In this document: positions 9,012 through 61,964 of the stretch, piece by piece | How positions within the stretch are numbered: position 1 is the first letter of the stretch | How the letters are laid out: each line of letters opens with the position of its first letter | DNA from: Squalus acanthias | Lineage: Eukaryota | Reading direction: 5' to 3' | DNA: 64,000 nucleotides | NCBI GenBank assembly: GCA_030390025.1 | Contig: CM059432.1 | Coordinates: 18,168,001-18,232,000, forward strand | Program-made: the position numbers and the translations under genes | The notes under the pieces: model-generated | The model's database searches: none | Seen by the model: the letters and a program-made list of their open reading frames with translations, nothing else | What the model was told of the DNA's origin: nothing

Positions 9012-10903
9012 TTTTTTTAATTCGTTTATGGGATGTGGGCGTCGCTGGCAAGGCCAGCATTTATTGTCCATCCCTAATTGCCCTTGAGAAGGTGGTGGTG
9101 AGCCACCTTCTTGAACCGCTGCAGTCCATGTGGTGAAGGTACTCCCACAGTGCTGTTAGGTAGGGAGTTCCAGGATTTTGACCCAGCGACAATGAAGCAT
9201 CGGCCGATATACTTCTAAGTCAGGATGGTGTGTGGCTTGGAGGGGAACTTGGAGGTGGTGGTGTTCCCATGCGCCTGCTGCCCTTGTCCTTCTCAGTGGA
9301 AGAGGTCACGGGTTTGGGAGGTGCTGTCGAAGAAGCCTTGGTGAGTTGCTGCAGCGCATCTTGTAGATGGTGCACACTGCAGCCACGGTACGTCGGTGGT
9401 GGAGGGAGTGAATGTTTAAGGTGGTGGATGGGGGGCCAATCAAGCGGGCTGCTTTGTCCTGGATGGTGTCGAGCTTCTTGAATGTTTTTGGAGCTGCACT
9501 CCTCCTGGCAAGTGGAGAGTATTCCATCACACTCCTTACTTGTGCCTTGTAGATGGTGGAAAGGCTTTGGGGAGTCAGGAGGTGAGACACTAGCCACAGA
9601 ATACCTAGCCTCTGACCTGCTCTTGTTGCCACAGTATTTATGTGGCTGGTCCAGTTAAGTTCCTGGTTAATGGTGACCCCCAGGATGTTGATAGTGGGGG
9701 ATTCGGCGATGGTAATGCCATTGAATGTCAAGGGGAGGTGGTTAGACTCTCACTTGTTGGAGATAGTTATTGCCTGGCACTTCTGTGGTGCGAATGTTAC
9801 CTGCCACTTATCAGCCCAAGCCTGAACGTCGTCCAGGTCTTGTTGTATGCGGGCATGGACTGCTTCATTATCTGAGGAGTTGTGAATGGCGCTGAACACT
9901 GTGCAGTCATCAGCAAACATCCCCATTTCTGACCTTATGTTGGAGGGAAGGTCATTGATGAAGCAGCGGAAGATGGTTGGGCCCAGGACACTGCCCTGAG
10001 GAACTCCTGCAGCGATATCCTGGGGCTGTGATGATTGACCTTCAACCACCACAACCATCCTCCTTTGTGCTAGTTATGACTCCAGCCAGTGGAATGTTTT
10101 CCCCCTGATTCCCATTGACTTCAGTTTTACTAGGGCTCCTTGATGCCACACTCGGTCAAAAGCTGCCTTGATGTCAAGGGCAGTCACTCTCACCGCACCT
10201 CTGGAATTCAGCTCCTTTGTCCATGTTTGGACCAAGGCTGTAATGAGGTGGGAAGCCGAGTGGTCTTGGCGGAACCCAAACTGGGTATCAGTGAGCAAGT
10301 TATTGGTAAGTAAGTGCCACTTGATAGCACTGTCGATGACACCTTCCATCACTTTGCTGATGATTGAGAGTAGACTGATGGGGCAGTAATTGGCCGGGTT
10401 GGATTTGTCCTGCTTTTTGTGGACAGGACATACCCGGGCAGTTTTCCACATTGTCGGATAGATGCCAGTGTTGTAGCTGTACTGGAACAGCTTGGCTAGT
10501 TCTGGAGCACAAGTCTTCAGCACGATAGACGGGATGTTGTCGGGGCCCATAGCCTTTGCTGTATCCAGTGCGCTCAGCCGTTTCTTGATATCACGTGGAG
10601 TGAATCGAATTGGCTGAAGACTGGCTTCTGTGATGGTGGGGACCTCGGGAGTAGGCTGATATGGATCATCCACTCGGCACTTCTGGCTGAAGATGGTTGC
10701 AAACGTTTCAGCCTTGTCTTTTGCACTCATGTGCTGGGCTCCACCATCATTGAGGATGGGGATATTCTTGGAGCCTCCTCCTCCCGTTAGTTGTTTAATG
10801 GTCCACCACCATTCATGACTGGATGTGGCAGGACTGCAGAGCTTTGATCTGATCCGTTGATTGTGGGATCGCTTAGCCCTGTCTATAGCATGCTGCTTCC
10901 GCT
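9012..10903 (-). mobile_element. 5'-truncated copy of the tRNA-headed EN-RT LINE family (CR1/L2 group)
   Basis: RT motifs QFGFR, LDIKAAFDRVWH, GVPQGSVLGP and FADD in ORFs 10074-10730, 9750-10058 and 9306-9731. Poly-A end at ~9012. Colinear with 39001-40890 and 51830-53694. Confidence 0.92.
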
Positions 10904-11580
10904 GTGATAGGATGGAAGGCAGGAGGGATTAAATGACAAAAGGGATGATGGTGTAAGGCAAAAGGGGGTGATAATGGGACAAGATGGGTTTAGAGGAGGT
11001 GTAAATGGTGTAAATCATTAACAACGGCTGCTGTCTGACAAAATGGGGGCAAAGGTTATGATCTGAAATTGTTGAACTCGATGTTGAGTCTGGAACGCTG
11101 TAAATGCCTAATTGAAAGATGAAGTGCTGTTCCTCGAGCTTCTATTCATTTACCTTGCTAAATGTTATGTGAGTTGAGGTTTGTAATTCCCAAATTATAA
11201 CTGTTTTCAAAATAGCAGACATGGATCCATCCCTGTCTCTGAGCGCTGAACAGTGCCATCTTGTGCAGTAATTAGGACATTTCTGACGTCGGCTAGGTTC
11301 AAGGAAAACTGAACACCTTGTTCTGCATTTATATGTCTCTGCAAAGAGGATTTACAGCCAACTGGCAGAGCACATGTGCATCTCATGGATCTGTTATTCA
11401 TCTATTTTAATTTACCAGGGACAATACCTTTTGGGCTAGAAATTCATTATAGCCCAGGAATGGGCGGTATCAGTAGAAAATTTGGTGAATTAACGCCAGG
11501 CGCTAATGCTTTTGACTGCACGCAAAATTCGTGCTCATTGCTCAAAAAAATGATTGGAGTCATAATTCAAGTCTTAAATT

Positions 11581-13910
11581 AATTAGCAATCTTGTTGTAC
11601 GAGGCCCCTTGGGTCAGAGTGATCATAATATGATAGAATTCTTCATTAGGATGGAGAGTGAAGTAGTTGAATCAGAGACTAGGATCCTGAATTTAAATAA
11701 AGGAAACTACGATGGTATGAGGCGCGAATAGGGTAGGATTGATTGGGGAATGTCACTCAAAGGGTTGACGGTGGATAGGCAATGGCAAACATTCAAAGAC
11801 TGCATGGATGAACTACAGAATTTGTTCATCCCAGTGTGGCATAAGAATAAAACAAAAAGGGTGACTCAACCGTGGCTAACAAGGGAAATTAGGGATAGCA
11901 TAAGATCCAAGGAGAGGGCATATAAATTGGCCAGAAAAAGCGGTAACCCTGAGGATTGGGAGCAGTTTAGGATTCAACAAAGGAGGACAAAGGGATTAAT
12001 TAAGAAGGGGAAAATAGAATACGAAAGTAAGCTTGCAGGGAACATAAAAACTGACTGTAAGAGTTTTTATAGATATGTGAAGAGAAAAAGATTAGTGAAA
12101 TCAAGTGTAGGTCCCTTGCAGTCAGAAGCGGGGGAAGTTATAATGCGGAACAAAGAAATGGCAGACCAATTAAATGCATATTTTGGTTCTGTCTTCACAA
12201 AGGAGGACACAAATAACCTCCCAGAGATGTTGGAGAACATACGGTCTGATGAAAGGGAGGAACTGAAAGAAATCAGTATTTGCAGGGAAATGGTGTTAGG
12301 GAAATTGACGGGATTGAAGGCCGATAAATCCCCAGGGCCTGATAATCTACATCCTAGGGTACTTAAGGAAGTGGCCCTAGAAATAGTAGATGCATTGCTG
12401 ATCATCTTCCAACATTCGATGGAATCTGGAACTGTACCCATGGATTGGAGGGTAGCTAATGTTACCCCACTATTCAAAAAGGGTGGTAGAGAGAAAGCGG
12501 GGAATTACAGATCAGTAAGCCTGACATCGGTAGTGGGGAAAATGCTAGAGTCCATTATAAAGGATGTAATAGCTGAGCATTTGAAAAACAGTGACAGGAT
12601 CGGACAAAGTCAACATGGATTTACAAAAGGTAAATCGTGCTTGACTAATCTACTGGAATTTTTTGAGGATGTAACTGGGAAAATAGATAAGGGAGAACCA
12701 GTAGATGTGGTGTATTTGGACTTTCAAAGGGCTTTCGATAAGGTCCCGCATAAGAGATTAGCATGTAAAGTTAAGGTACATGGGATTGGGGGCAAGGTAT
12801 TGACTTGGATAGAGAACTGGTTGGCGGACAGAAAGCAAAGAGTAGGAATTAATGGGTCTTTTTCCGAGTGGCAAGCAGTGACTAGTGGGGTACCGCAGGG
12901 ATCGGTCCTTGGACCCCAGCTATTCACAATATACATTAATGATCTAGATAAGGGAACTAAATGTAATATCTCCAAGTTTGCAGATGACACAAAGCTGGGT
13001 GGGAGTGTGTGCTGCGAGGAGGCTACCGAGAAACTCCAGGATGATTTGGACAGGTTGGGTGAGTGGGCAGAAGCGTGGCAGATGCAATATAACGTGGATA
13101 AATGCGAGGTTATCCACTTTGGTGTCAAAAACAGAAAGGCAGACTATTATCTGAATGGCAATAAATTGGGAGAAGGGGAAGTGCAACGAGACCTGGGTGT
13201 CCTTGTGCACCAGTCGCTGAAGGTAAGCATGCAGGTGCAGCAGGTGGTGAAGAAGGCAAATGGTATGTTGGCCTTCATAGCGAAAGGGTTTGAGTATAGG
13301 AACAGGGATGTCCTGCTGCACTTGTACAGGGCCTTGGTGAGACCACACCTTGAGTATTGTGTGCAGTTTTGGTCGCCTTATCTGAGGAAGGATGTTCTTG
13401 CCATGGAGGGAGTTCAGCGAAGATTCACAAGGCTGATACCTGGGATGGCAGGAATGACATATGAGGAGAGATTGGGTCGATTGGGCTTATACTCGCTGGA
13501 ATATAGAAGAATGAGAGGGGATCTCATCGAAACATATAAAATTCTGACAGGTCTGGACAAACTAGATGCAGGAAGAATGTTCCCGATGGTCGGAGAGTCC
13601 AGAACCAGGGGTCATAATCTAAGGATAAGGGGTAAGCCATTTAGGACAGAAATGAGGAAGAATTTCTTCACCCAGAGAGTGGTGAACCTGTGGAATTCTC
13701 TACCACAGAAGGCAGTTGAGGCCAAGTCATTAAATATATTCAAGAATGAGTTAGATATATTTCTTAAAGCTAAAGGTATCAAGCGATATGGGGAGAAGGC
13801 AGGTACAGGGTACTGAGTTTGGATGATCAGCCATGATCTCATTGAATGGCGGAGCAGGCTCGAGGGGCCGAATGGCCGACTCCTGCTCCTATCTTCTATG
13901 TCTATGTTTC
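11581..13910 (+). mobile_element. CR1 LINE, 5'-truncated, young
   Basis: Endonuclease tail GQSDHNMIEF, a full RT domain, CR1 3' UTR and a CTATGT(TT) tail. Confidence 0.95.
11750..13816 (+). CDS. CR1 ORF2 remnant (reverse transcriptase), 688 aa uninterrupted
   Basis: KSPGPD, QHGF, YLDFQRAFDKVPH, GVPQGSVLGP, KFADD, RPHLEYCVQFWSP. The endonuclease domain is truncated and a TAG lies just upstream at ~11729. Confidence 0.9.
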   Translation: MSLKGLTVDRQWQTFKDCMDELQNLFIPVWHKNKTKRVTQPWLTREIRDSIRSKERAYKLARKSGNPEDWEQFRIQQRRTKGLIKKGKIEYESKLAGNIKTDCKSFYRYVKRKRLVKSSVGPLQSEAGEVIMRNKEMADQLNAYFGSVFTKEDTNNLPEMLENIRSDEREELKEISICREMVLGKLTGLKADKSPGPDNLHPRVLKEVALEIVDALLIIFQHSMESGTVPMDWRVANVTPLFKKGGREKAGNYRSVSLTSVVGKMLESIIKDVIAEHLKNSDRIGQSQHGFTKGKSCLTNLLEFFEDVTGKIDKGEPVDVVYLDFQRAFDKVPHKRLACKVKVHGIGGKVLTWIENWLADRKQRVGINGSFSEWQAVTSGVPQGSVLGPQLFTIYINDLDKGTKCNISKFADDTKLGGSVCCEEATEKLQDDLDRLGEWAEAWQMQYNVDKCEVIHFGVKNRKADYYLNGNKLGEGEVQRDLGVLVHQSLKVSMQVQQVVKKANGMLAFIAKGFEYRNRDVLLHLYRALVRPHLEYCVQFWSPYLRKDVLAMEGVQRRFTRLIPGMAGMTYEERLGRLGLYSLEYRRMRGDLIETYKILTGLDKLDAGRMFPMVGESRTRGHNLRIRGKPFRTEMRKNFFTQRVVNLWNSLPQKAVEAKSLNIFKNELDIFLKAKGIKRYGEKAGTGY

Positions 13911-21507: not shown

Positions 21508-21891
21508 TTTTTTTAAAATTCATGCATGGGATGTGGGCGTCGCTGGCAATGCTAGCATTTATTGCCCATCACTAATTGCCCTTGAGAAGGTGGTGGTGAG
21601 CCGCCATTTCAGAGGGCATTTTAGAGTCAACCACATTGCTGTGGGTCTGGAGTCACATATAGGCCAGACCAAGTAAGGACGGCAGATTTCCTTCCCTAAA
21701 GGACATTAGTGAACCAGTTGGGTTTTTAGGACAATCCGGTAGTTTCATGGTCACCATTACTGACACTAGCTTTTTATTCCAGATTTTATTTAATAACTGA
21801 ATTTAAATTCCCCAGCTGTCTTGGTGGGATTTGAACTCATGTCTCCGGATCATTAGTCCACGCTGCTGGATTACAAGTCCATTAACATACC
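21508..21891 (-). mobile_element. SINE-like derivative: tRNA head plus 3' tail of the tRNA-headed LINE
   Basis: 21606-21891 matches the LINE head (B box GAGTTCAAATCCC). 21508-21605 matches the LINE 3' end. Joined at a GCC microhomology. Confidence 0.85.
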
Positions 21892-26489: not shown

Positions 26490-27660
26490 CTCTTCTTAGG
26501 CAGTTCCTCAGAACCGAGGATGACTTGCTTCCACATTAAAAATTAGTTCTCAGGTGACTGATGAGTCCAATGCGGGACCTACAGTCTCTGTCACAGGTGG
26601 GGCAGACGGTGGTTGAAGGGGCGGGTGGGTGGGGTGCTTGGGTTGACGTGCGCTCCTTCCGCTGTTTGCGCTTGGCTTCCGCTTGCTCCCAGCGAAGAGA
26701 CTCGAGATATTCGGCGCCTTCCCGGATGCTTCTCCTCACTTTGTACGGTCTTGGGCCAAGGATTCCCAGGTGTCGGTGGGGATGTTGCACTTTTTCAAGG
26801 AGGCTTTGAGGGTGTCCTTGAAGCGTTTCCTCTGCCCACCTGGGGCTCTCTTGCCGTGTCGGAGCTCGAGTAGAGCCGTTTGTTTTAGGAGTCTTGTATC
26901 GGGCATGCGGACGATGTGACCCGTCCATCGGAGCTGATCGAGCGTGGTCAAAGCTTCGATGCTGGGGATGTTGGCCTGAGCGAGAACACTGACGTTGGTG
27001 CGCCTATCCTGCCAATGGATTTGCAGGATCTTGCGGAGGCAGCGTTGGTGGTACCTCTCCAGTGCTTTGAGGTGCCTGCTGTACATGGTCCATGTCTCCA
27101 AGGCATACAGCAGGGCGGGTATTATTACTGCTCTGTAGACCATGAGCTTAGTGCCGGGTTTGAGTTCCTGCTCTTCAAACACTCTCTTCCTCAGGCGACC
27201 GAAGGCTGCACTGGCACATTGAAGGCAGTGTTGGACTTCGTCATCGACGTCTGCCCTTGTTGACAGTAGGCTCCCGAGGTATGGAAAGTGGTCCACGTTG
27301 TCCAAGGCCTTGTCATGGATTTTGATAATCGGGGGGCAGTACTGTGTGGCGGGGGCAGGTTGATAGAGGACCTTTGTCTTACGGATGTTTAGTGTAAGGC
27401 CCATGCTCTCGTACGCTTCGGTGAAGGTGTTAACGATGGTTTGGAGTTCGACCTCCGAGTGTGCGCATCAAGATCGAGAAGAGCGTTGGTGCGATGACAC
27501 AGCCTTACTTGACCCCGGTCCGTACGTGAATTGGGTCTGTGGTGGATCCGTTGGTCAGGATCACGGCTTGCATGTCGTCGTGAAGCAGGCGGAGGATGGT
27601 GACAAACTTTTGAGGGCAGCCGAATTTGAGGAGGACACTCCATAATCCCTCACGGTTGAC
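26490..27660 (-). mobile_element. RTE-clade LINE 3' fragment with internal deletions
   Basis: RTGVK*GCVIAPTLF, GLTLNIRKTKV, FPYLGS, QLRWTGHIVRMPD, GGQRKRFKDTLK and C-terminal CPTCDRDCRSRIGLISHLRT zinc finger. Confidence 0.9.
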
Positions 27661-37511: not shown

Positions 37512-37735
37512 GTCTGAAATAAAAACAGAAAATGCTGGAAATACTCAGCAGGTCAGGCAGCATCTGTGGAGAGAGAGACAGAGTTAACGTTTCAGGTCGA
37601 TGACCCTTCGTCATCGACCTGAAACGTTAACTCTGTTTCTTTCTCCGCAGGTGCTGCCTGACCTGCTGAGTATTTCCAGCATTTTCTGTTTTCATTTCAG
37701 ATTTCCAGCATCCGCAGTATTTTGCTTTTGTATTA
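37512..37735. repeat. Palindromic Penelope terminal fragment (~90-bp arms)
   Basis: 37512-37603 is the inverted copy of 37609-37700 around a CCTTC spacer. Sequence matches the Penelope 3' end (20980-21094). Flanked by CTGGGTCTG repeats. Confidence 0.85.
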
Positions 37736-39000: not shown

Positions 39001-42000
39001 TTTTTCTTTATTCGTTCATGTGATGTGGGCGTTGCTGGCAAGGACAGCATTTATTGCCCAACCCTACATGCCCTTGAGAAGGTGGTGGTGAGCCGCCTTC
39101 TTGAACCACTGCAGTCCTTGTGGTGAAGGTACTCCCACAGCGCTGTGAGGGAGTTCCCGGATTTTGACCCAGCGACGATGAAGGAATGGCGATATATTTC
39201 CAAGTCAGGATGGTGTGTAACTTGGAGGGGAAATTGCAGGTGATGGTGTTCCCATGCGCTTGCAGCCCTTGTCCTTCTAGGTGGTATAGGTCGCGGGTTT
39301 GGGAGGTGCTATTGAAGAAGCCTTGGTGAGTTGCTGCAGTGCATCTTGTAGATGGTACACACTGCAGCCACGGTGCACCAGTGATAAAGTGAGTGAATGT
39401 TTAAGGTGGCAGATGGGGTGTCGATCAAGCGGGCTGCTTTGTCCTGGATGGTGTCAAGCTTCTTGAGTGTTGTTGGAGCTGCACTCATCTAGGCAAGTGG
39501 AGAGTATTCCATCACACTCTTGACTTGTGCCTTGTAGATGGTGGAAAGGCTTTGGGGAGTCAGGAGGTGAGACACTCACCGCAGAATACCCAGCCTCTGA
39601 CCTGCTCTTGTTACCACAGTATTTATGTGGCTGGTCTATTTAAGTTTCTGGTCAATGGTGACCCCCCACGATGTTGATGGTGGGGGATTCGGCGATGGTA
39701 ATGCTGTTGCATATCAAGGGGCGGTGGTTAGACTCTCGCTTGTTGGAGCTAGTCATTGCCTAGCACTTGTGTGGCGCAAATGTTACCTGCCACTTATCAG
39801 CCCAAGCCTGAATGTCATCCAAGTCTTGCTGCATGCGGGCATGGACTACTTCATTATCTGAGGAATTGAGAATGGAACTGAAAACTGTGCAATCATCAGC
39901 AAACATCCCCATTTCTGACCTTATGATGGAGAGAAGGTCATTGATGAAGCAGCTGAAGATGGTTGGGCCTAGGACACTCCGTTGAGGAACTCCTGCAGTG
40001 ATGATCTGGGGCAGTGATGATTGACCGCCAACAACCACAACCATTTCCTTTGTGCTAGGTATGACTCCAGCCAGTGGAGAGTTTCCCCCCTGATTCCCAT
40101 TGACTTCAGTTTTACTAGGGCTCCTTGATGCCACACTCGGTCAAATGCTGCCTTGGTGTCAAGGGCAGTCACTCTCACCTCACCTCTGGAATTCAGCTCT
40201 TTTGTCCATGTTTGGACCAAAGCTGTAATGAGGTCTGGAGCCGAGTGGTCCTGGCGGAACCCAAACTGGGCATCGGTGAGCAGGTTATTGGTGCGTAAGT
40301 GCCGCTTGATAGCACTGTCGACGACAGCTTCCATCACTTTGCTGATGATTGAGAGCAGACTGATGGGGCGGTAATTGGCCGGATTGGATTTGTCCTACTT
40401 TTTGTGGACAGGACATACCTGGGCAGTTTTCCACATTGTCAGGTAGATGCCAGTGTTGTAGCTGTACTGGAACAGCTTGGCTAAAGGCGCAGCTAGTTCT
40501 GGAGTACATGTCTTCAGCACGACAGCCGGGATGTTGTCGGGGCCCGTAGCCTTTGCTGTATCCAGTGCGCTCAGGCATTTCTTGATATCACGTGGAGTGA
40601 ATTGGCTGAAGACTGGCTTCTGTGATGGTGGGGACGTCAGGAGGAGGTTGATATGGATCATCCACTCGGCACTTCTGGCTGAAGATGGTTGCAAATGCTT
40701 CAGCCTTGTCTTTTTCACTCATGTGCTGGGCTCCACCAGCGTTGAGGATGGGGATATTCATGGAGCCTCCTCCTCCCGTTAGTTGTTTAATTGTCCACCA
40801 CCATTCATGACTGGATGTGGCAGGACTGCAGAGCTTTGATTTGATCCATTGATTGTGGGATCGCTTAGCCCTGTCTATAGCTTGCAGCTTTTGCTGTTTA
40901 GCATGCATGTAGTCCTGTGTTGCAGCTTTCCCAGGTTTGCACCTCTTTTTTGGGTTCACCTGGTGTTGCTCCTGGCATGCTCTTCTGCACTTCTCATTGA
41001 ACCAGGGTTGGTCCCCTGGCTTGATGGTAATGGTAGAATGAGGGATATGCCAAGCCATGAGGTTACAGATTGTGGTGGAATACAATTCTGCTGCTGCTGA
41101 TGGCCCACAGCGCATCATGGATGCCCAGTTTTGAGCTGCTAGATCTGTTGTGAATCTATCCCATTTAGCACGGTGGTAGTGCCACACAACACGATGGAGG
41201 GTGTCCTCAATGTGAAGATGGGTCTTTGTCTCCACAATGACTGTGTGGTGGTCAGTGCTACTAATGCTGTCATGGACAGATGCATCTGCCACAGGTAGAT
41301 TGGTGAGGACGAGGTCAAGTAGATTTTTCCCTCGTGTTGGTTCTCTCACCACCTGTTGCAGGCCCAGTCTGGCAGCTATATCCTTCAGGACTCTGCCAGC
41401 TCTGTCAGTAGTGGTGCTACTGAGCCACTCTTGGTGATGTACATTGAAGGACCAAGAGTACATTCTGTGCCCTTGCTACCCTTAGTGCTTCTTCCAAGTG
41501 GTGTTCAACATGGAGGAGTACTGATTCATCAGCTGAGGGAGGGCGGTAGGTGGTAATCAGCAGGAGGTTTCCTTGCTTATGCTTGACCTGAAGCCATGAG
41601 ACTTCATGGGGTCCGGGGTCAATGTTGAGGACTCCCAGGGCCACTCTCTCCTGATTGTATACCACTGTGCCACCACCCCTGGTACAGTGATGGAGGCATC
41701 TGGGACATTGGCTGAAAGCTATGACCTGTTAGTATGACTATGTCAGGCTGTTGCATGACTTGTCTATGTAACAGCTCTCCCAATTTTGGCACAAGTCCCC
41801 AGATGTTAGTGAGGAGGACTTTGCAGGGTCGACTGAGCTGGGTGTGCTGTTGTCGCGTCTGAAGTCGATGCCAGGTGGTCCATCCGGTTTTATTCTTATT
41901 ATTGTTGTCTGTCGCGGTTAAGTACAACTGGATGGCTTGCTAGGCCATTTCAGAGGGCAGTTAAAAGTCAACCACATTGCTGTGGGTCTGGATTCACATA

Positions 42001-44070
42001 TAAGCCAGACCGGGTAAGGACAGCAGATTTCCTTCCCTAAAGGACATTAGTGAACCAGATGGGTTTTTACGACAATCCGATAGTTTCATGGTTATCATTA
42101 CTGATACTAGCTTTTTATTCCAGATTTATTTAATGGACGCGACTGCTACTGTAAGGGGTGACCTGCGGCTCTGTGCTTAGCCTAGGTGCTAGTGCGGGGT
42201 TAGGCCTTGTTGCCTGTTCTGGTCTCCAGCCAGCCTGGTAACACTAGACACCTGTGAGTGGTTCGACCCACTCGCCCTTATGGTTCTGACACTGGACTTA
42301 GGTGCGAGAGTAATAATGCAGAGAAAGACTCAGGTGGACCCGGGTGAATAGTGCGAAATGGAAAATCTTTATTGCATATTATTCAAGATTACGAGATACA
42401 TGTCATAAGCACAGATTAACGACAGTACAATCTTACACACAGTTATGAAACTAAATTTTAGGGAAACGAGGAGCGCATGACACATCGTAAAAAAAAAAGG
42501 GACACACATTATAATTATCCTTAAAACTTAAACCCTCCCCTATCAATACCTGTCCTAATCTAGATTTTTAGGATCGAGACTCATGCTCACCACTCGTGAT
42601 AACTCGGAGAATTCCGAAACTCTGCTCGGATGTTTTTCCCGCAGCACCTGACTATCCACGTGTTGATCAGGGGTCTCTGTACCCCACTTGTTTACTCGTT
42701 TCTGCTCCGGCTAGCAGGCTGGACCGTCTGCTGTCATGAAGATCTGTGTTCCGATACTACTCAAAAAAGAGTCTTCCTGTGCCCTACACCAGTTGTCTGT
42801 AGAACTCAAAGAAGGGTCTTCCTAGGCCAGTTGTGGAGTAGCCGATAAAATTCGAAGAAGTGTTTATTCGACTTACAGGCGCGGTCGGGGCTTACTGACC
42901 ATGGCAATGCGTATTGTCGTCTTCTTCTCTTCTCATCTCATCTCATCTCATCTCATCTCTCGGGGCTTCGGTTCCAACACCGTTTACCGACTTCTCGGGA
43001 TGGTGCGCCCGCTTCTAGGCCTCACAGCCCAGTTCTCCACAGATCTTCGCGGCAAGCCACGAGGTTGATCCTAGCGGATCAGAGTCCAGAGCCGTCAGGC
43101 AAGAGAATAAAAGTTCAGCAGCCTTCCAGCGAGTCAAAGCAGCAAGTGCAAGAAGAAGAGAAAGATGGACGGTTGTACCTTACAGTTATAGTGCTGGAAT
43201 TCCTCTTTTCCCGCCCAATCTTAATGTTTATCTTTTGTCAGGGTTTTGGCGCTCAAACTTCTTGTATAGGGTGATCTCCATCTTTAATGGGTTTCGGTGA
43301 TACTTGTAACTGTCTGAGTACCCGTTAATATTTCTCCCATTGTGGAACCGGCTAGTAGTCTCCCTGGAGGGGTTTTGGGGCTTCCAAATGCTTGCTGTAA
43401 GTACCCGCAAACGGCTTTCTCATCGTAGAGTCGTGGGGATTTTGCATATTAATGTCTTTGGATGGGTCCTTGATCGCTCGGTACAATAGCCCTTATTTGC
43501 ACCTGGGAGACCGATTCCAGTATTTATGTTTAAAATGCAAACCCATCATGTCTTGTCAATTATCTCAAATGTGCTGAGTCCTGTACGATCTTGCACAAAT
43601 GTTTATTGGAACGCCATCTTGTCTGCCCACTGAAAGTCTAGAACTTTCTGCCATGAGACGTGGCGGCCATTTTACAGGCTGTTTGTGTCCGTTTTGAAAC
43701 CTGACAGCATTCTGCTGAAATAAAAGCTGTTTGTACGAAACTTTATGTCTCCTTCTTATTTTATAAAATCGCGATAATTTTGCGAATTCTACACTACCAA
43801 CGAACCGGAAGCTGCGTAGAAGCGTTCTTTGCATGCGCGTTTCCGGCTCGTCACGGGAGCCGGCATTTAAAATTTTTTTTTTAAAATGCCGGGGTGGGAG
43901 CGGGCTCCTTGAAAAATGCCGGGGAGGGAGTGGGCTCGTGTAAAAATAACAGAAACATCACAGGGCCGGTTCTAGATTAATGCATAGTATGTTTCTGCCC
44001 AGTTTCCGGTTGTGGGATTTGAACTCATGTCCCTGGATCATTAGTCCCGTAACATAACCACTATGCTACC
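39001..44070 (-). mobile_element. Full-length tRNA-headed EN-RT LINE (head interrupted at 42134-~43997)
   Basis: A box at 44068-44058 and B box at 44024-44016. APE motifs TNIWGL, YRPP, LDLVLTN and DH, then RT. Poly-A end at 39001. Several frameshifts. Confidence 0.9.
42150..43793 (-). mobile_element. Solo LTR copy 3 (1644 bp)
   Basis: TGTA...TACA termini, TSD CTAC; close homolog of 22497-24185. Confidence 0.9.
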
Positions 44071-44254
44071 TTTACCCAATGTTGTTGGTGACTGCTGCTG
44101 TGTTACTTTTAGAGCTTTTCGGGAGTTTTTGCTGCTAGAACCGACAGTAATCATTTGTAAAAGTAATTTGGTGAGTTAGCAGAGGGTTTTTGCCCAGGGA
44201 CTTCTGGCAAACGTCTGATTTGTTTCAATGGGTTTGATGCTGATCCTGCCATTT

Positions 44255-45560
44255 TAGCTGGAAGATTGGTGGAGGAGGAGGAGGAGGAGCAGGCTGGAAT
44301 TCAGGGAAAGGCAGCTGCAGAGCCAAGAAACAGAAGGAGGGAAGCTTGCAGGAGGCCTTGTCCCACACGAGTGTACAGGCCCTGAACTTGCTGCCTGCAG
44401 TTCACTGAGGAGCAGTGTGGGAGGAGGCTCCGCTTTACCGTGGAGACTGCTATAGGTCCTGTCACCTGCTGCAGTACCAACTGCAGTGCAACACAAAAGG
44501 TCGCCGGGTGCCAATGTTTGAACTGGCACTTGCAAGCATAAGAGTGAGTGACGGTGCAAGACTCTTCATCCTCCTCCTCCACTGCCAAAGGCTTCAAGTC
44601 TTCATCAGGACCTGGAAAGAGGGAATAGAGAAGATGTTAGTAGTTCTGAGTGATGGTATATCATTGCAAAACAGTGGTTGCTCAATGAAGCACCATGCTG
44701 TGATGTATATTGTGTGAGGGGGATAGTTAAGTGGGGGCCCCAGAAAAATAGGGGCCAGGTACCCAGCGGCATGCTTCCTCCTGTCTCGGTTTCTGCAACA
44801 GCTCTGGCTCTCTCTCTCTGCCCAGGATATCCATAGCAGCATCTTCAGCAGATGGCAGTATGTGCAAAGATGGAGTCCCACCACCTGTGCAGATCCTCTC
44901 CCTGGCATTGTGTGCTAGTTTTTCCTGCAAGAGCAAAGGGAATGTGTTAGTGAGTGGGATGTTGCAGAGTTCTGAACATCTGTGTGTGAGGTTTGAATAG
45001 TTCGCCTGGTGCCATGAAGAAGCTTCAGCTGTGTTCAAGAGAAGGCATTAATTGTGAGACCAGTGGCAGTGGCAGAGTTTGCAAGTGGCAGCAGGAGGAA
45101 GGGTGTTGCAATGAACGGACGAGAAGAATGTGAAATAAGGGAGGTCAAAGTCTTCATTGATGCTGTTCCAGTAAAGTAGTGCAGGGCTCTGCTGACAATG
45201 ACAAGTCTGTGAATGGGAGTCTTACCTTAGCAGCCCAAGTCAGGTCATTGAACTTCTTCTTGCATTGCTTTCTGGTTCCAGGGCTAAATTACAGGCATTG
45301 ACATGCTCAGCCATCTCAGAACATGCTTCCTTGGCAGTGTGGCGGTGCGTTCTGATCCCACCTGATGGAAATAAAACATTCTTCCTTCTCCTTACTTACT
45401 CCACTGAAGCCTCCAGGGCATTATCTAAAAATCTTGGCACTCTCCCAATCGACATTTTTTGCCTTCCAGTACACAAACAGCCTTCAACTGAGCTCCACAA
45501 TAAGCACTGCCTCTCCCCTTTAAGAGGTGCAGGGCACCAGGAACTGACGTCTCACCCCGA
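44255..45560. pseudogene. Internally deleted old Harbinger: transposase N-terminus (+) and Myb-like exons (-)
   Basis: Plus strand: RVYRP...FTEEQCGRRLRFT at ~44370-44440. Minus strand: FLDNALEASVE, KKFNDL..AK followed by a GTAAG donor at ~45226, and exon 2 EKLAHNARERICTGGG. Confidence 0.7.
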
Positions 45561-45849
45561 TGATGGAGATGTCCAATTACCAGCAAGATCCATGCTGACA
45601 GTTTGCCCATCAAATTAAAAAAAGGCACAAATCTGAAAGGAGTTCGGGACTCGCCCTCACGTCATCGGGCGAGTGTTGCAGTCGCTCCGCCCCTTTTGGG
45701 CACAAGTTGAAAGCTGTTTGTACCCAGTGTTTTTGAGGTTAGTTGATTGTCATTACTTCAGATTTGGGTGGGTGCAGGAAGGAGACCAGTGGTGGGAGTG
45801 GAAAATTACACATATGTGAAATTTAAAGGGCAGGGGAGAAGCTTTTTTT

Positions 45850-46790
45850 GATATATATATAAATGACCTGGATATTGGAATACAGAGTAGAATTTCTAAA
45901 TTTGCCTATGACACCAAACTTGGGGGTGTGGCAAACAGTGAGGATGATACCAATTGACTGCAACAGGACATAGAAAGGCTAGCAGAATGGGCAGACAAGT
46001 GGCAGATGGAATTTAATACAGAGAAGTGTGAGGTGGTGCATTTTGGCAGAAGGAACAGGGAGAGGCAATATACACTTAATAGCACAGTTTTAAAGCGTGT
46101 GCAGGGACAGAGGGACCTGGGAGTTAATGTGCATAGGTCCCTGAAGGTGGCGGGACATATTGAGAGAGTGGTTAGCAAAGCATATGGGATCTTGGGCTTC
46201 ATAAATAGAGTTACTGAGTACAAAAGTAGAGAAGTTATGCTGAACCTTTATAAAGCGCTGGTTAGGCCACAACTGGAGTATTGCGTCCAGTTCTGGTCAC
46301 CACACTTTAGGAATGATGTAGAGGAGATTTACCAGAATGGTTCCGGGGATGGGGGATCTTAGCTACAAGGACTGGTTGGAGAAGCTGGATTTGTTTTCAT
46401 TAGAGCAAAGAAGGTTGTGGGGTGATTTGATAGAGGTGTATAAGATTATGACAGGTTTGGATAGGCTAGACGGGGAAAGGCTGTTCCCACTAGTTGATGG
46501 TACAAGGACTAGGGGACACAGATTTAAGGTTTTGGGCAAGAGATACAGGGGGGATGTGAGGAAAAACATTTTTACGCAGCGAGTGGTGATGACCTGGAAC
46601 TCGCTGCCGACGGAAGTGGTGGAAGCGGAGACACTCAATGTTTTCAAGGGGAGACTGGATAGGTACTGGAGGGAAATAAACTTGCAGGGCTACGGGGATA
46701 GAGCGGGGGAATGGGACTGACTGGATTGCTCCACAGAGAGCCGGCACGGACTCGATGGGCCGAATGGCCTCTTCTGTGCCGTTATGACTG
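45850..46790 (+). mobile_element. CR1 LINE 3' part
   Basis: WQMEFNTEKCEVVHFG, RPQLEYCVQFWSP, GDLIEVYKIM and the 3' UTR. Confidence 0.92.
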
Positions 46791-46792
46791 TT

Positions 46793-47507
46793 GGGCTAAA
46801 AATTGAGTAGCTTCGCCGGGGCGCTACTTTTAGCGCCCGGGAAAAATTAGCACCCCCGCGGCGGAAATTGAGTGGTTGCGCCCCAAGAGGGAAGCGGGGC
46901 ACTACTGGAAGCACCCCGCATCCCTCTTGGGGCGCTGCGAGTCAATATCGCGGCGCTACGTGCCGCGGTATTGCAGGCCTTCCTCCCCTTCTTAAAGGGG
47001 AGGGGCCTTGCGCAGCGCAACCCGAGGCCCAGCTGGGCCCCCGGGGATCGGGAGTGCCGGCAAAAGAGCCCGGCACTCAAGAGAAGTGCCGGGCTCTTGG
47101 AGCGCAGCCGGCACTCCGTGGGGGGGGGGGGGGGGGGGCCCCGTTCAGGAGGCCGGGGACGGGAGCGCAGGCAGGTGCTGGCAGGCGGCCAGCAACAAAA
47201 ACGGCCGCCCCGCACCTCGCCTTTAATTAGCGCCTCCCCAGCTGCAGGTAGGCCCCCCCCTGACCCCGTCGGACATAGCGTCCGGCGGTAAGTCAGGTGG
47301 CGCTCCCGAAGATCGTGGCCAGGGCGCGAGCGGGGCACTGCACACGGCGATGACGTCATCGCCGGCGGCGCAGCGTCGCCGCTAACCTCCCACTGAATTT
47401 CTCGGGAGGTGTGGGCGGCGCCTCGCCCGGGTGCTAGTTGCTTTGCGCCCCTTTAGCGCACTCTTAGGGCGCTAACGGGAGGTGCAAAGCAACCCAATTT
47501 CCCCCCC
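46793..47507 (+). mobile_element. Harbinger-type MITE family A
   Basis: GGGCTAAAAATT/AATTTCCCCCCC termini; inserted in a CR1 (TATGACTC) tail. Confidence 0.85.
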
Positions 47508-49647
47508 TATGACTCTAAGTATGGGGAAGTAACAGAATAGTTTACATGGAATCCAACTAAACAGCGCATAAAGATCAGCACCATTAATTCCCGATCGTCC
47601 GCTGTGTATGCCGGGTTTCTGTGGCTTCCGTTGATCTTCCACCAGAAATTACGGCAGATGATCAGGAGAACTCCTGCGGAAATTCAACCCCAAAACATTT
47701 GGACAGCTCTGGAATAATTCAACAATCAATGTCCCTGGAGGTCCTGCCGAATTTAACGGCAAGACCTGATGAACATTATTTGAACCCGTTTCCCGGCTGC
47801 AGCCAGCCAGATTGCACCAGGTCACAGCCGGGGAGCGGAGAGGAGGGAGGGATGCAGGGAGAGATTGTTGGTTGGACATTGGGGCGGAGCCAGAGAGATC
47901 ATGGGTCGCACATCCAATCGCGGTGGGGGGGGGGCGGGGGGTTGGCCGATCGCTGTGATCCGATTACGAGGGGGAGTGGTCTGATCGTGGGGAGATTAAC
48001 AGCCCCGAGCGGCTTCCCCACTCAGGCCTCGGTTAAAATGGCACCGGGGTCTTTCTGGCGTTACATACCCCCGATTTGCAGAAATTCATGAGGCTCCCAC
48101 CTGCTTTAACTGGGCACCTCGTGCGCCTGCAAAACCCAGCAGGTTAATATCAGAGACGGTGGGAAAGGATCGCATTCCCAACACATAATTAACCTGCTCG
48201 GTTATTTTTCCCACCCGCCCAGTTTCTGCAGGATGGGTTGAATTAAAATCGTTCCCGTGGTATTTTCTTCATAGTGCATTTGTGTTCTGTCTGTTCATTA
48301 ACAGGTAAACAAATAATCCAGTCTGCGTGTTTTGCATTTATTATGCGAGTGATGCTCATTTCCAGAGACAATGTGGCTGGAATTTGGTTTTTATACTGGT
48401 TAATATGAAAAGCTGTATGGGCTGATATCATCAAAAGCCCTTTACGTCATATGGAATGAGGCCTCACTTACAGGAATTGTCTTTGGCATTGAACACAAGA
48501 GAGCTATCTGAGCAGAGCTGTCAACACTGGCTGGGAGTGACACTTTTATATTTAAAAAGTAAAGTGAGGCCATATGAAGTGGTAAGATACATTGACGTAG
48601 GTTACATTTTAAAAGAAAATGAGATATTTGAAAGGTCGTCAAAAAAGGCAAAGTTAACATTTTTTTTAAATGTTAAGGAGATGAATTACACAAATAATTG
48701 CCGATTTGAACCCTCCGATTTTGGACAAGCCTGAGAATGTTAGAAACAGTCTTGTAACTTGCCTGCCGATTTCTCCAAGTTCTGAATTGTTGCCAAGTTT
48801 ACATTAAAGACAGGTGATGAGAGTGTTTCTATTCAACATTTAAACATACTAACAGTATAAGTAGAACTCTTGTCAACACCGTGGTGAAAATATCCAATCT
48901 GCTTAGAATCATAGAATAGAATCATAGAACGATACAGCACAGAAGGAGGCCGTTCGGCCCATCGTGCCTGTGCTGGCTCTTTGGTAGAGCTATCCAATTA
49001 GTCCCACTCCCCTGCTCTTTCCCCATAGCCCAGCAATCTTTTCCTTTTCAAGAATTTATCCAGTTCCCTTTGAAAGGTATTATTGAATTTGCTTCCACCG
49101 CCCTTTCAGTCAGGGCATTCCAGATCATTACAACTCACTGCATAATTTTCCCCCCTCATGTAGCCTCTGGTTCTTTTGCCTATTATCTTAAATCTGTGCC
49201 CTTTGGTTGCCACTCCTTCTGCCACTGGAAACAGTTTCTCCTTATTTCTCAAAACCCTTCATGATTTTGAACACCTCTATCAAATCTCCCCTTAACCTTC
49301 TCTGCTCGAAGGAGAACAACCCCAGTTTCTCTGGTCTCTTAAAGTAACTGAAGTCTTTCATCTCTGGCACCATTCTAGTAAATCTCCTCTGCACCTTCTC
49401 TAAGGCCTTGACATCCTTCCTAAAGTGTGGTGCCCAGAATTGGCTACAATACTCCAGCTGGGACCGAACCAGTGTTTTATAAAGGATTAGCATAACTTCC
49501 TTGTACTCTATTCCTCTATTTGTAAAGCCAAGGTCTGCCTTTTTAACCACCTTCTCAACGTGTCCTGCCACCTCAGAGATTTGTGTATGTACACCCCCAG
49601 GTCTCTCTGTTCCTGCACCCCCTTTAAAATTGCACCATTTTTATATT

Positions 49648-50413
49648 GGGCCAGAAATTCGGCTTTCCGGCTTCCCGCGGGTGCAAGGATCGCACGTGTA
49701 CTTACCTACCGCGCCTGCCGTTGTGCTTCGGGCCCGTGTGGAATTCGGCTCCTGGGCCTCCTGCAGCTGCCGGTGTGCAGTGCTTGCGTATCCCAGGGGC
49801 GCAGTTAGTTCGAAGCGTCCCCTGGGATCACGTGGGCCATGGAGAGCCAATCAGAGCAGGGAATCTCCATTCATAGATTTTGACAGGAAGACCTGTCAAA
49901 TCTATGAATAGAGATCGGCCCGAAAACCTCACTAAAACGTCAGATAAATTTTAAAAAAAACATCACATTTTAAAAATAACTATAAATTACATAAATTAAC
50001 TACTTTAAACAAAAATTAAAATTTTTGAAAAAATTAATTACTCTTTTTAACGGTGCTAAAAATAAACTTACCTTTCTTTAAAGTATGTAAAAAAGATAAA
50101 CCTGTTGAAAAAATGTTTAAATTGTACTTAATTCACCACTTACCTTGTTAAAATCAGGCCTTGCGCCTCCTTTTTTCCTGCGCAGCTTCTCCATACTTAC
50201 ACTCACTCCAAAACCTGTAAAAAAAATGGAAGTTCGCTGCGTGCGCGCTGCCTCTCCGGCGTACGCAGTTGACCCTCGAACCCCTTCTTTCACGAGACCG
50301 GAAGTTCCGGTTTCCCATGCATGCACAGTGCATGCGCGAAACCGGCACTTCCGGTGGCCCTACGGGTGAGTACACAGCGCGTACTCACCCGTGGAGACCC
50401 GAATTTCTGCCCC
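49648..50413. mobile_element. Harbinger-type MITE (family C-related)
   Basis: TIR GGGCCAGAAATTC/GAATTTCTGCCCC; TSD ATT. Confidence 0.88.
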
Positions 50414-50471
50414 ATTGCTTTTCTTCATTCTTCCTACCAAAATGAATCACTTCACACTTATCTGAATTAAA

Positions 50472-50538
50472 TAGCATAGTGGTTATGTTACTGGACTAGT
50501 AACTGGACTAATTATCCGGTAGACGCGAGTTCAAATTC
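50472..50538 (+). promoter_or_regulatory. Type-2 RNA polymerase III internal promoter (A box + B box)
   Basis: TAGCATAGTGG (50472-50482) fits TRGCNNARYGG. GTTCAAATTC at 50529-50538 reads GTTCAAATC in the 44016 and ~21830 copies. Confidence 0.75.
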
Positions 50539-53500
50539 CACCACAGGCAGCTGGGGAATTTAAATTCAGTTAATTAAATAAATCTGGAATAAAAAGCCAG
50601 TATCAGTAATAGTGAACACAAAACTATTGGATTGTCGTAATAAAACCACTAATGTCCTTTAGGGAAGGAAATCAGCCGTCCTGGCCTGGCCTATATGTGA
50701 CTCCAGACCCACAGCAATGTGGTTGACTCTGAAATGGCTGAGCAAGCCACTCAGTTGTAAAAAAACTGCTACGATAAATAATAAGAATAAAACCGGACGG
50801 ACCACTTGGCACCGGCTATGGACATGACAACAGCACACCCTGTCCAGTCGACCCTGCAAAGTCCTCCTCACCAACATCTGGGGACTTGTGCCAAAATTGG
50901 GAGAGCTGTCCCACAGACTAGTCAAGCAGCAGCCTGACATAGTCATACTCACAAAATCATACCTTTCAGCCAATGTCCCAAACTCCTCCATCACCATCCC
51001 TGGGTATGTCCTGTCCCACCGGCAGGACAGACCCACCAGGGGTGGTAGCACAGTGGTATACAGTCGAGAAGGGGTGTCCCTGGGAGTTTTCAACATTGAC
51101 TCTGGACCCCATGAAGTCTCATGGCTTCAGGTCAAGCATGGGCGAGGAAACCTCCTGCTGATTACCACCTACCGCCCTCCCTCAGCTGATGAATCAGTAC
51201 TCCTCCATGTTGAACACCACTTGGAAGAAGCACTGAGAGGAGCAAGGGCACAGAATGTACTCTGGGTGGGGGACTTCAACATCCATCACCAAGAGTGGCT
51301 CAGTAGCACCACTACTGACCGAGCTGGCCGAGTCCTGAAGGGCATAGCTGCCAGACTGGGCCTGTGACAGATGGTGAGAGAACCAACATGAGGGGAAAAA
51401 CCTACTTGACCTCATCCTCACCAATCTACCTGTCGCAGATGCATCTGTCCATGACAGCATTGGTAGCAGTGACCACCGCATAGTCATTGTGGAGACGCAG
51501 TCCCGTCTTTACACTGAGGACACCCTCCATCGTGTTGTGTGGCATTACCACCATGCCAAATGGGAGAGATTCAGAACAGATCTAGCAGCTCAAAACTGGG
51601 CATCCATGAGGCACTGTGGGTCATCAACAGCAGCAGAATTGTATTCCACAATAATCTGTAACATCATGGCCCGGCATATCCCTCACTCTACCATTACCAC
51701 CAAGCCAGGGGACCAACCCTGGATCAATAAGGAGTGTAGAAGGGCATGCCAGGAGCAGCACCAGGCGTACCTAAAAATGAGGTGCCTACCTGGGGAAGCT
51801 GCAACACAGGACTACATGCATGCTAAAAAGCAGAAGCAGCATTCTATAGACAGGGCTAAGCGATCCCACAATCAACGGATCAGATCAAAGCTTTGGTGGT
51901 GGAATATTAAACAACTAATGGGAGGCGGAGGCTCCAGGAATATGCCCATCCTCAAAGATAGTGGAGCTCAGCATTTGAGTGCAAAAGCCAAAGCTGAAGC
52001 GTTTGCAACCATCTTCAGCCAGAAGTGCCGAGTGGATGATCCATATCAGCCTACTCCCGAGGTCCCCACCATCACAGAAGCCAGTCTTCAGCCAATTCGA
52101 TTCACTCCACGTGATATGAAGAAACAGCTGATACACCAAAGGCTATGGGCCCCAACAACATCCCGGCTGTCGTGCTGAAGACTTGTGCTCCAGAACTAGC
52201 CACGCCTCTAGTCAAGCTGTTCCAGTACAGCTATAACACTGGCATCCATCCGACAATGTGGAAAACTGCCCAGGTATGCCCTGTCCACAAAAAGCAGGAC
52301 AAATCCAATCCGGCAAATTACCGCCCCATCAGTCTACTGTCAATCATCAGCAAAGTGATGGAAGGTGTCGTCGACAGTGCTATCAAGCTGCACTTACTCA
52401 CCAATAACTTGCTCAAAGATGCCCAGTTTGGGTTCAGCCACGACCACTCGGCTCCAGACCTCATTACAGCATTGGTCCAAACATGGACAAAAGAGCTGAA
52501 TTCCAGAGGTGAGGTGAGAGTGACGGCCGTTGACATCAAGGCAGCATTTGACCGAGTGTGGCATCAAGGAGCCCTAGTGAAACTGAAGTCAATGGATATC
52601 GGGGGGAAATCTCTCCACTGGCTGGAGTCATACCCAGCACAAAGGAAAATGGTTGTGATGGTTGAAGGTCAATCATCACAGCCCTAGGACATCGCTGCAG
52701 GAGTTCCTCAGGGCAGTGTCCGAGGCCCAACCATCTTCAGCTGCTTCATCAATGACGTTCTCTCCATCATAAGGTCAGAAATGGGGATGTTCGCTGATGA
52801 CTGCACAGTGTTCAGTGCCATTCGCAACTCCTCAGATAATGAAGCAGTCCATGCCCGCATGTAACAAGACTTGGATGACATTCAGGCTTGGGCTGATAAG
52901 TGGCAGGTAACATTTGCACCACACAAGTGCTAGGCAATGACTTTCTCCAACAAGCGAGCGTCTAACCACCACCCCTTGATATGCAACAGCATTACCATTG
53001 CCGAATCCCCTACCATCAATAACCTGGGGGTCACCATTGACCAGAAATTTAACTGGACCAGCCACATAAATACTGTGGCACCAAGAGCAGGTCAGAGGCT
53101 AGGTATTCTGCAGCGAGTGTCTCACCTCCTGACTCCCCAAAGTCTTTCCACCAGCTACAAGGCACAAGTCAGGAGTGTGATGGAATACTCTCCACTTGCC
53201 TGGATGAGTGCAGCTCCAACAACACTCAAGAAGCTCGACACCATCCAGGACAAAGCAGCCCGCTTGATTGGCATCCCATCGACCACCTTGAACATTCACT
53301 TCCTCCACCACCGGTGTACCGTGGCTGCAGTGTGTACCATCTACAAGATGCACTGCAGCAAAATGCCAAGGCTTCTTCGGCAGCACCTCCCAAATGCACA
53401 ACCTCTTCCACCTAGATGGACAAGGGCAGCATGGGAAAATACCACCACCTCCAAGTGCCCCTTCAAGTCACACACCATCCTGATTAGGAAGTATATCGCC

Positions 53501-53694
53501 GATCCTTCACCGTCGCTGGGTCAAAATCCCGGAACTCCCTTCTTTAACAGCACTGTGGGAGTACCTTCACCACACGGACCGCAGCGGTTCAAGAAGGCGG
53601 CTCACCACCACCTTCTCAAAGACAACTAGGGATGGGCAATAAATGCTGGCCTTGCCAGCGATGCCCACATCCCATGAACGAATAAAAAAAAAAA
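50472..53694 (+). mobile_element. Full-length tRNA-headed EN-RT LINE (~3.2 kb, no ORF1)
   Basis: Head, then APE (TNIWGL ~50870, YRPP, GDFN, SDH), then RT (QFGF, AFDRVWH, PQGS, FADD), a short 3' UTR and poly-A. Contains stops and frameshifts. Confidence 0.92.
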
Positions 53695-61400: not shown

Positions 61401-61964
61401 GCCGAAGCAACGCAACGGCTTAGTGCTGTAATGGAGTCAGTGGTTGCTGGCATGCAATCTCAGACTGCTCTCATGCAGTCTCAGATTGATGCCACGCAAG
61501 CGCTGACTGCTGCCATCCTCGCTGGGTCAACCACAATCCACCGGGGATCTGACGGTGCCGCAGCAGGTCAGCAATCTGTGTTCGAGCAGATTGCTTCAAA
61601 TGCTGAGGTTCTGCCCCGGGGGAGTGGCAGTGTTTCGGTCGAGCGGGAAGGTGCTGTCCTCTCTCAGGATGACAGCATTCCTGCTCCCACCACTGCCACT
61701 CCGCCATTGCACTTGCCGCAGCCTGTAACCCAGCCAGCCCAGACTGCTGCCGCCCATGCTGAGTTGGTGCAGTCTGCAGCCGGGCCCTCCAGGCCCAGAG
61801 CTGGTCGAGGGCCTCCTGCAAGGCCATCTGCAGTCTCTGGCTCCCAGACTCAGCAGCCTTCCACCAGCCTTGCTGCAGCCACTGGGGCCACATTACGGAG
61901 GAGCAGTAGGGTTGGGAGAGGGGAGCTCAAAAGGGGAGGTAAATCATTAAAGAAGGGGGAGTAA
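58476..61964 (+). pseudogene. Harbinger Myb/SANT-like gene, copy 3 (exons 58476-58716, 60550-60695, 60847-61964)
   Basis: Same splice sites as copy 2. Exon 3 is fully open, exons 1 and 2 carry indels, and a CR1 lies in intron 1. Confidence 0.88.
58856..60450 (+). mobile_element. CR1 LINE, 5'-truncated, with an open ~500-aa RT frame
   Basis: ORF 58839-60362 (KSPGPD...RFVDD...RPQLEYC) and a (TATGACTC) tail. Confidence 0.95.

Follow-up and report, generated by a model that had tools for sequence, protein, structure and literature searches.

T-cluster depletion in a tRNA-headed Zenon LINE of sharks and rays and its possible relation to RNA polymerase III

Zenon copies in the window

The window, 64,000 nucleotides of a Squalus acanthias contig (CM059432.1, positions 18,168,001 to 18,232,000), holds long copies and a short form of one LINE family together with fragments of two separate LINEs (Table 1). 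The original prediction spoke of three long copies of a tRNA-headed LINE. In the window the head is kept in copy A only; copies B and C start downstream of it. The minus-strand fragment is one that we take to be RTE-type from its protein motifs.

Table 1. Features of the window, in window coordinates
Feature	Position	Strand	Basis
Copy A, near-full-length decayed Zenon LINE without the first 8 consensus bases	50472..53694	+	
A box of tRNA-type internal promoter, copy A	50472..50482	+	sequence; copy conservation
B box of tRNA-type internal promoter, copy A	50527..50537	+	sequence; copy conservation
Broken remnant of endonuclease and reverse transcriptase ORF, copy A	50828..53629	+	
Private T4 run, copy A	51087..51090	+	
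AATAAA about 40 nt 5' of tail, copy A; also in consensus	53638..53643	+	
Tail junction, copy A: single T, then oligo(A)	53683..53694	+	
Copy B, consensus base 117 through to the end; lacks the head and its A and B boxes	39001..42134	-	
Private T4 runs, copy B	41963-41966 and 39881-39884	-	
Copy C, truncated at its 5' end; spans consensus 1411 to end	9012..10905	-	
Private T4 run, copy C	10158-10161	-	
SINE-like short form: head (consensus 22-307) plus tail (3218-3315)	21508..21888	-	
T4 of short form, immediately 5' of A tail	21515-21518	-	
Canonical CR1 ORF2 fragment, separate from element; control with 5 T4+ runs	11732..13816	+	
LINE fragment, presumably RTE-type, separate from element; family is the T-poor control	26536..27467	-	

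The decayed copies belong to elasmobranch Zenon, a known shark-and-ray retrotransposon family of the CR1 group. A family consensus of 3,315 nt was built from 49 near-full copies across the genome, and its first 400 nt, compared by eye, are nearly letter for letter those of SquAca_Zenon-1. Consensus sequences from other elasmobranch species are about 84% identical (PMC13343379). The consensus has a single ORF, 973 codons from stop to stop, that encodes an APE endonuclease and a reverse transcriptase (Pfam PF14529/PF03372 and PF00078). The 329 nt 5' of this ORF hold no long frame that could represent an ORF1. The first in-frame Met is residue 287, and no in-frame AUG precedes the endonuclease. 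Nonsense changes at a frequency of at least 10% were found at 0 of 167 sites outside CpG.

A reverse transcriptase tree of 91 homologues, with no named Zenon references among them, placed a crab protein in one near cluster. A 76% copy was considered as a possible older sister family. As a query it returned main-family copies only and is therefore an old decayed copy. The family and its short form also occur in sequencing-run contigs of four to seven other organisms; a metagenome scan gave one short match and a viral scan gave none.

The tRNA-type head

The A and B boxes, internal as in a type-2 Pol III transcription unit, lie at consensus positions 9-19 and 72-82. The A box consensus base is kept in 28-33 of 31-34 endonuclease-selected copies at all positions except one variable site, and the B box base at each position in 39-45 of 45-46 copies. 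All 100 endonuclease-selected copies examined for their 5' starts begin inside the head or the 5' UTR, 25 of them at base 1. The tRNA-type head belongs to the family as its native 5' end. By eye, it is present in all seven published elasmobranch Zenon consensus rows (five species), and the first 400 nt of these seven rows are free of T4; the hagfish and coelacanth rows are headless and contain T4 or longer runs in the same interval.

The head was not called a tRNA by ARAGORN or Rfam (0 each), and it lacks the cloverleaf of a tRNA gene (fold z -0.99). The terms 'tRNA', 'polymerase III' and 'Pol III' have no match in the main text of PMC13343379, so the head and the T-cluster depletion are undescribed in that text. 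A search of the literature outside subscription journals and Repbase notes found no paper on a Pol III-transcribed autonomous LINE or on the Zenon head.

Absence of TTTT from the coding strand

Vertebrate Pol III terminates at T4 or longer. Four sense-strand T4 runs, each private to one copy, had been reported for the three long copies, and there are no others in their 8,252 nt. The replacements given for three of these sites are indeed read in other copies (GTCCTC; GTGTTC, or GAACAC on the plus strand; GCATTT, or AAATG on the plus strand). For the fourth, TAGAG at 41963, the comparison comes from the short copy located at 21.5-21.9 kb; copy A is deleted there and copy C does not extend to it. 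The predicted T4-free consensus was confirmed, with 0 T4 and 7 TTT in 3,315 nt, and both counts recur in the old, middle and young sub-groups. The genomic copies contain 64 T4 in 426,809 nt (0.15 per kb).

As had been anticipated, few runs are expected by chance and the support is modest. Between 1.5 and 2.5 T4 are expected, with P from 0.06 to 0.22 according to the null (dinucleotide shuffle 0.22, synonymous permutation 0.12, Phe-neutral 0.06). Against synonymous shuffles, then, the direction is that of depletion but significance is not reached. The absence of TTTT alone is weak evidence. A test for selection among source lineages had no power: silent sites at which a change creates T4 reach a frequency of 5% in 0 of 14 cases against 49 of 780 control sites. 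The split of Phe codons, named beforehand as a check, is not significant (TTT/TTC 3/15, P 0.10). Sense-strand A4+ runs are common, as had been noted (20, 15 and 8 in the three long copies), and the CR1 fragment does contain several T4+ runs (5 at 11750-13816). The contrast between A4 and T4 was set aside as a signal: strand composition mostly explains it (A4 14 observed, 14.25 expected).

Depletion of weaker stop motifs and T-clusters

In vitro work on human Pol III has defined weaker stop motifs (PMC3141230). The ORF contains 1 where synonymous permutation predicts 5.6 (P 0.007-0.009), and 0 of the stronger classes against 3.6 expected (P 0.01). The sole survivor is T2CT2, at which termination was about 15% efficient in the human in vitro assay (PMC3141230). 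Over 3,300 nt the element has 0 T4, 0 stronger non-canonical motifs and 1 weak motif. The observed/expected ratio of stop motifs in the ORF is 0.18, compared with 0.99 +/- 0.11, and never under 0.71, across 76 control LINE ORFs, which are mostly T-rich and come from few hosts. TTT is likewise reduced in the ORF (5 against 11.2 expected, P 0.005), as are T-T codon junctions (8 against 24; ratio 0.33 compared with 0.90 +/- 0.11 in 67 control ORFs) and windows with five T in eight (4 against 14.4). The Phe content of 1.9% is under that of each of the 91 homologues, which average 4.6% and go no lower than 2.3%. Among all comparators the element is lowest in TTT, T-T codon junctions and Phe content.

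Mirror A motifs of the opposite strand are at no deficit (32 against 30.4 expected), a result that speaks against target avoidance at the level of DNA. Another possibility is that U-clusters are avoided in a Pol II RNA for stability, export, premature 3' processing or endonuclease self-targeting. Low TA (91 against 111.6 expected) and low T-x-T in the element are in keeping with this, as is a milder version in a CR1 of the same genome, CR1a (five T in eight, 38 against 59.6 expected). Pyrimidine tracts (13 against 12.0 expected) and splice-donor-like motifs, however, show no deficit in the element, and we regard this explanation as very improbable. Counts of ATTTA and AATAAA are too small to judge.

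Comparison with control LINEs

The depletion might instead be inherited: the element would be an ordinary Pol II LINE of a T-poor, Phe-poor Zenon sub-clade that captured the 5' part of a SINE as its UTR and lacks T4 by chance. The low T4 expectation given above is compatible with this. Low T4 also extends to LINEs without a demonstrated head. The RTE of the same genome, with 17.5% T, less than the element, has a single T4 (2.65 expected), at its stop codon, and none within 728 codons; all RTE copies checked are 5'-truncated. The nearest DNA relative, L162, whose 5' end lies outside its contig, has 20.1% T, 2.2% Phe, one T4 (3.9 expected) and a T-T junction ratio of 0.53. Since L162 is also T-poor and Phe-poor, the bias seems in part to predate the head, and the closest protein relatives are at 2.3-3.4% Phe. 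Another comparator, L230, has one T4 in its ORF (8.5 expected) and then T4 runs in its 3' UTR.

The stop motifs behave differently. Synonymous permutation holds protein and codon usage fixed, yet the deficit in the element persists, while L162 (8 against 9.5 expected), L230 (27 against 25.4) and the RTE (6 against 7.5) are near expectation; the RTE is also near it for TTT (11 against 12.1) and T-T junctions (12 against 12.4). Both boxes are, moreover, kept in LINE-linked copies and across sharks and a ray. Inherited composition appears unlikely. The CR1s of the same genome have stop-motif ratios of 0.71-0.81, and with 0.71 as the null ratio the P value for the element is about 0.09 (Poisson arithmetic). 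No A and B box pair was found 5' of 67 homologous ORFs, many of whose contigs lack the 5' end. Neither T4 runs in the consensus nor the same broad depletion in the comparators, the two outcomes named beforehand as telling against read-through, was found outright.

A proposal of Pol III read-through

With a tRNA-type promoter ahead of a coding strand that holds hardly any T-clusters, the element is probably transcribed by RNA polymerase III, an enzyme whose normal products are short non-coding RNAs alone. Source copies would be transcribed end to end over 3.3 kb from base 1, with Pol III stopping at a T run, either that of the tail junction or one in flanking sequence. The RNA would gain its A tail either by polyadenylation of the kind seen in T+ SINEs of mammals (PMC8466645) or from the template. 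T-clusters would be depleted because an internal stop would leave the RNA without its 3' end, which the reverse transcriptase requires. On balance we favour selection for Pol III read-through as the source of the depletion in headed Zenon. The original prediction of such selection gains from the wider stop motifs, TTT and T-T junctions, and not from the T4 count. Against the proposal stand that non-significant count, the T and Phe bias shared with L162 and the low Phe of the closest proteins, the CR1 ratios, the low TA, the missing in-frame AUG ahead of the endonuclease and the failure of ARAGORN and Rfam to call the head a tRNA.

LINE proteins show cis preference, acting on their own coding RNA. 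Pol III might nevertheless make just the template for reverse transcription, with protein coming from capped Pol II transcripts; these would arise by read-through from the host or by Pol II initiating within the head. Such dual use accounts for the head and for the depletion of stop motifs, and also for there being no obvious translation route for an uncapped RNA; Pol II is reportedly able to initiate from Pol III promoters. The absence of nonsense changes at 10% frequency or more outside CpG sites, however, fits a coding RNA that is itself the copied RNA, and a Pol II RNA would likewise have no in-frame AUG. We consider dual use decidedly unlikely. The fuller form of the read-through proposal is that an autonomous protein-coding LINE switched to Pol III via a tRNA-type head and recoded its whole 3-kb frame, including its choice of Phe, so that Pol III stop signals are avoided, and that its uncapped RNA is polyadenylated in the manner of T+ SINEs and translated without an in-frame AUG, a state lasting across sharks and rays. 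Taken jointly, these steps are tentative, and we hold them to be somewhat less probable than their negation.

The 3' end and the short form

A T run followed by an A tail could be parsed in 154 of 183 copy ends. The run is 1-11 long in copies other than copy A, being a single T in 74 of the 154 ends and T4 or longer in 30. At least two T are present in 80 of the 154, compared with 14 of 426 readings at internal sites of T followed by A5. Run length shows no trend with copy age (Spearman P 0.24). Because T runs next to A tails are documented to lengthen after insertion (PMC8466645), the 3' runs were set aside as proof of Pol III termination. The short form fits SINE2, the tRNA-derived SINEs; the long form, at 3.3 kb and coding, falls outside that short, non-coding class.

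Relation to known systems

LINEs are taken as Pol II units and SINEs as Pol III units (PMC5786205). Were a natural Pol III transcript of 3 kb that encodes protein to exist in a vertebrate, it would break this split and offer a test case for the translation of uncapped RNA. It would also give a simple route to SINE birth, the internal deletion of an already-headed LINE.

The element has no structural difference from the elasmobranch Zenon described from SquAca_Zenon-1 and four other species, which is likewise about 3.3 kb with APE and RT, no ORF1 and a poly(A) tail (Stuart et al. 2026, PMC13343379). Lepidopteran Zenon is also a single-ORF element, and its internally deleted form Persaeus joins the 5' and 3' ends as the shark short form does. 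Persaeus reportedly has no tRNA homology or Pol III promoter (PMC6740152), whereas in sharks the A box and the B box are both present in the short form. B2, Dip and Ves, the T+ SINEs of mammals (PMC8466645), share the tRNA-derived head, AATAAA, variable T run and A tail, but they are 150-300 nt and non-coding, while the element is 3.3 kb, encodes its own enzyme and most commonly has a single T as its tail run. In Bov-tA and SINE2-1_ACar (PMC4494074, PMC5786205) a tRNA head is joined to LINE-derived sequence, as here. Those elements are non-autonomous and have lost the coding region, whereas in the shark Zenon the head sits on a full coding element.

The Zenon family and its 5' end

A piece of the Zenon family is present in 9 of 20 arbitrary 10-kb stretches of the 3.7-Gb host genome. 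Copies were collected via the head-ORF junction (39, with two apparent duplicates left out) and with the endonuclease protein alone as query (150 found, 100 of these fetched). The consensus, built from 49 copies having one aligned stretch of more than 2.3 kb, is 3,315 nt long and comprises a tRNA-type head, a 329-nt leader, a single 973-codon frame for endonuclease and reverse transcriptase (RT), AATAAA and an A tail. All 100 endonuclease-selected copies start within bases 1-405 (25 at base 1), and the upstream flanks of the first 40 gave two pairwise matches near 80% and no common sequence; the head is therefore the family's own 5' end. In these LINE-linked copies the A and B boxes, 52 nt apart in the consensus, are conserved. 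A tRNA gene was rejected as the identity of the head, which presumably resembles tRNA-Thr(AGT).

The window element is a member of elasmobranch Zenon. Compared by eye, its consensus matches SquAca_Zenon-1 over the first 400 nt, the portion considered from the PMC13343379 supplement; within that portion the head begins all seven elasmobranch rows, and two hagfish rows and one coelacanth row start without it. No description of the Zenon head or its Pol III transcription was found in the literature searched. In contigs of two other organisms (joints near 5196-8084 of the outside locus L129) the head (~320 nt) is followed directly by the terminal 75-100 nt; the SINE-like short form is thus shared between species. 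Stretches 78% identical to the Zenon ORF occur in two annotated shark proteins, P0001 (Heptranchias, aldo-keto reductase-like) and P0003 (Heterodontus, storkhead-box-like), reflecting either exonisation or a gene-model artefact.

Zenon copies and other features in the window
Feature	Position	Strand	Remarks
Zenon copy A	50472-53694	+	Sole long copy retaining the head
Stem-loops between the boxes	50491-50526	+	Two, similar, in tandem, like a duplicated anticodon arm
AUG at consensus 358	near 50787-50793	+	ATA in copies A and B
Zenon copy B	39001-42134	-	5' start at consensus base 117
Zenon copy C	9012-10905	-	5' start at consensus base 1411
Short Zenon copy	21508-21888	-	Head and tail only
CR1	11750-13816		Five T4+ runs
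Two-ORF repeat, three related copies	202-2647, 14470-17314, 60492-63467		Presumably a Harbinger-type DNA transposon
RT-bearing repeat	17437-20727, 22496-24185, 42149-43793		Presumably Penelope-like; one copy lies directly against copy B at its 5' truncation
Inverted repeat	37513-37701		189 nt, near-perfect (92%); may be a MITE, with relatives at 8812-8985 and 20902-21096

Runs of four T

The original prediction was that the sense strand lacks shared runs of four T (T4) because of selection for Pol III read-through. The four T4 runs it placed in the long copies were confirmed, every one private to a single copy, as were several runs in the CR1. The consensus indeed has none, but this absence by itself is barely beyond chance: 1.85 are expected by synonymous permutation (P 0.12), 3.9 by base shuffle (P 0.018), 1.45 by dinucleotide shuffle (P 0.22) and 2.47 when Phe codons follow the usage of the other NNY codons (P 0.06). 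The Phe codon bias, at TTT/TTC 3/15, is not significant (P 0.10).

Thirteen same-genome CR1 and Penelope-like consensus stretches, which are of low depth, several overlapping, and richer in T than Zenon, have 3-14 T4 each. The fair control, an RTE family poorer in T than Zenon and represented by 30 copies and 728 codons, has one T4, at the stop codon, vs 2.65 expected. The homologous ORFs derive from 80 loci of animal DNA inside bacterial genome bins, of which 67 have at least 500 codons in one frame. Together the 67 have 1,144 T4 vs 1,175 expected, but a few are individually low: L162, the nearest DNA relative (1 vs 3.9), L230 (1 vs 8.5) and L208 (4 vs 11.7). L230:4001-6138 (animal DNA, OZ219981.1) is a 5'-truncated poly(A) LINE of 678 codons with no T5; its 3' UTR has T4 runs and its weaker stop motifs are at normal counts. 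At least 80 animal LINE contigs (L162-L241) lie within bacterial and archaeal bins, as host contamination of MAGs.

Weaker stop motifs and T clusters

According to PMC3141230, human Pol III is stopped by T4 and, at lower efficiency, by TVT3, T3VT, T2VT2, T2VT3 and T3VT2 (V, non-T), and hardly by an isolated T3. This set, whose efficiencies are human, not shark, was adopted prior to counting. The Zenon ORF has one such motif vs 5.6 expected (P 0.007 in one run, 0.009 in another), and none of the stronger classes vs 3.6 (P 0.01). Its ratio of 0.18 is well below the 0.99 +/- 0.11 (minimum 0.71) of 76 controls, mostly T-rich ORFs drawn from few hosts; same-genome CR1 ratios fall to 0.71-0.81, and with that as the null P is ~0.09. 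Counts are 8 vs 9.5 in L162, 27 vs 25.4 in L230 and 6 vs 7.5 in RTE.

Four mutually correlated, not independent, measures also give Zenon the lowest ratio among the sequences compared: TTT (5 vs 11.2), TT (74 vs 90.9), codon junctions with T on both sides (8 vs 24.2) and eight-base windows holding five T (4 vs 14.4). The depletion is short-range, and it is T-specific and one-stranded, because pyrimidine tracts (13 vs 12.0) and mirror A, C and G motifs are at expectation. Phe makes up 1.9% of the protein, below all 91 homologues of at least 800 residues, the nearest relatives being Phe-poor as well; 14 homologues tried, if recoded with Zenon codon usage, would have 9-21 stop motifs each.

Proposed Pol III read-through

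If Pol III made the RNA of Zenon source copies, internal stop signals would be lethal to a lineage; RT requires the RNA 3' end (PMC3747384). The predicted selection for read-through of the coding strand draws its support from the stop-motif and T-cluster depletion and barely any from T4. We favour Pol III transcription of the source copies under such selection, with modest confidence, as the best explanation.

The first in-frame Met of the ORF is residue 287. Consensus 358-501 is a 48-codon frame, +1 to the main ORF, that starts with AUG. The G of this AUG is present in 72 of 94 copies, with ATA in a minority, and by eye the AUG is in the PMC13343379 rows of all five elasmobranch species, except the deleted variant SquAca_Zenon-3. 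It could be a frameshift or re-initiation start. Functional mRNA is reportedly obtainable from Pol III.

3' ends and comparison with SINEs

A T run and A tail were parsed in 154 of 183 Zenon ends, with one T at the tail junction in 74 and at least two in 80 (at least four in 30); internal sites of T before A5 have at least two T in 14 of 426 readings. The parsed ends show no trend of T run with copy age. In T+ SINEs, as PMC8466645 describes them, Pol III stops inside the T run, AATAAA directs polyadenylation, and T runs extend into short A tails after insertion. The Zenon tail run may offer the Pol III model a route to transcript ends; it falls short of proof because of such post-insertion growth. 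The 3' anatomy of Zenon (T run, A tail and AATAAA) is similar to that of these SINEs. As a whole, Zenon most likely works like a giant coding SINE.
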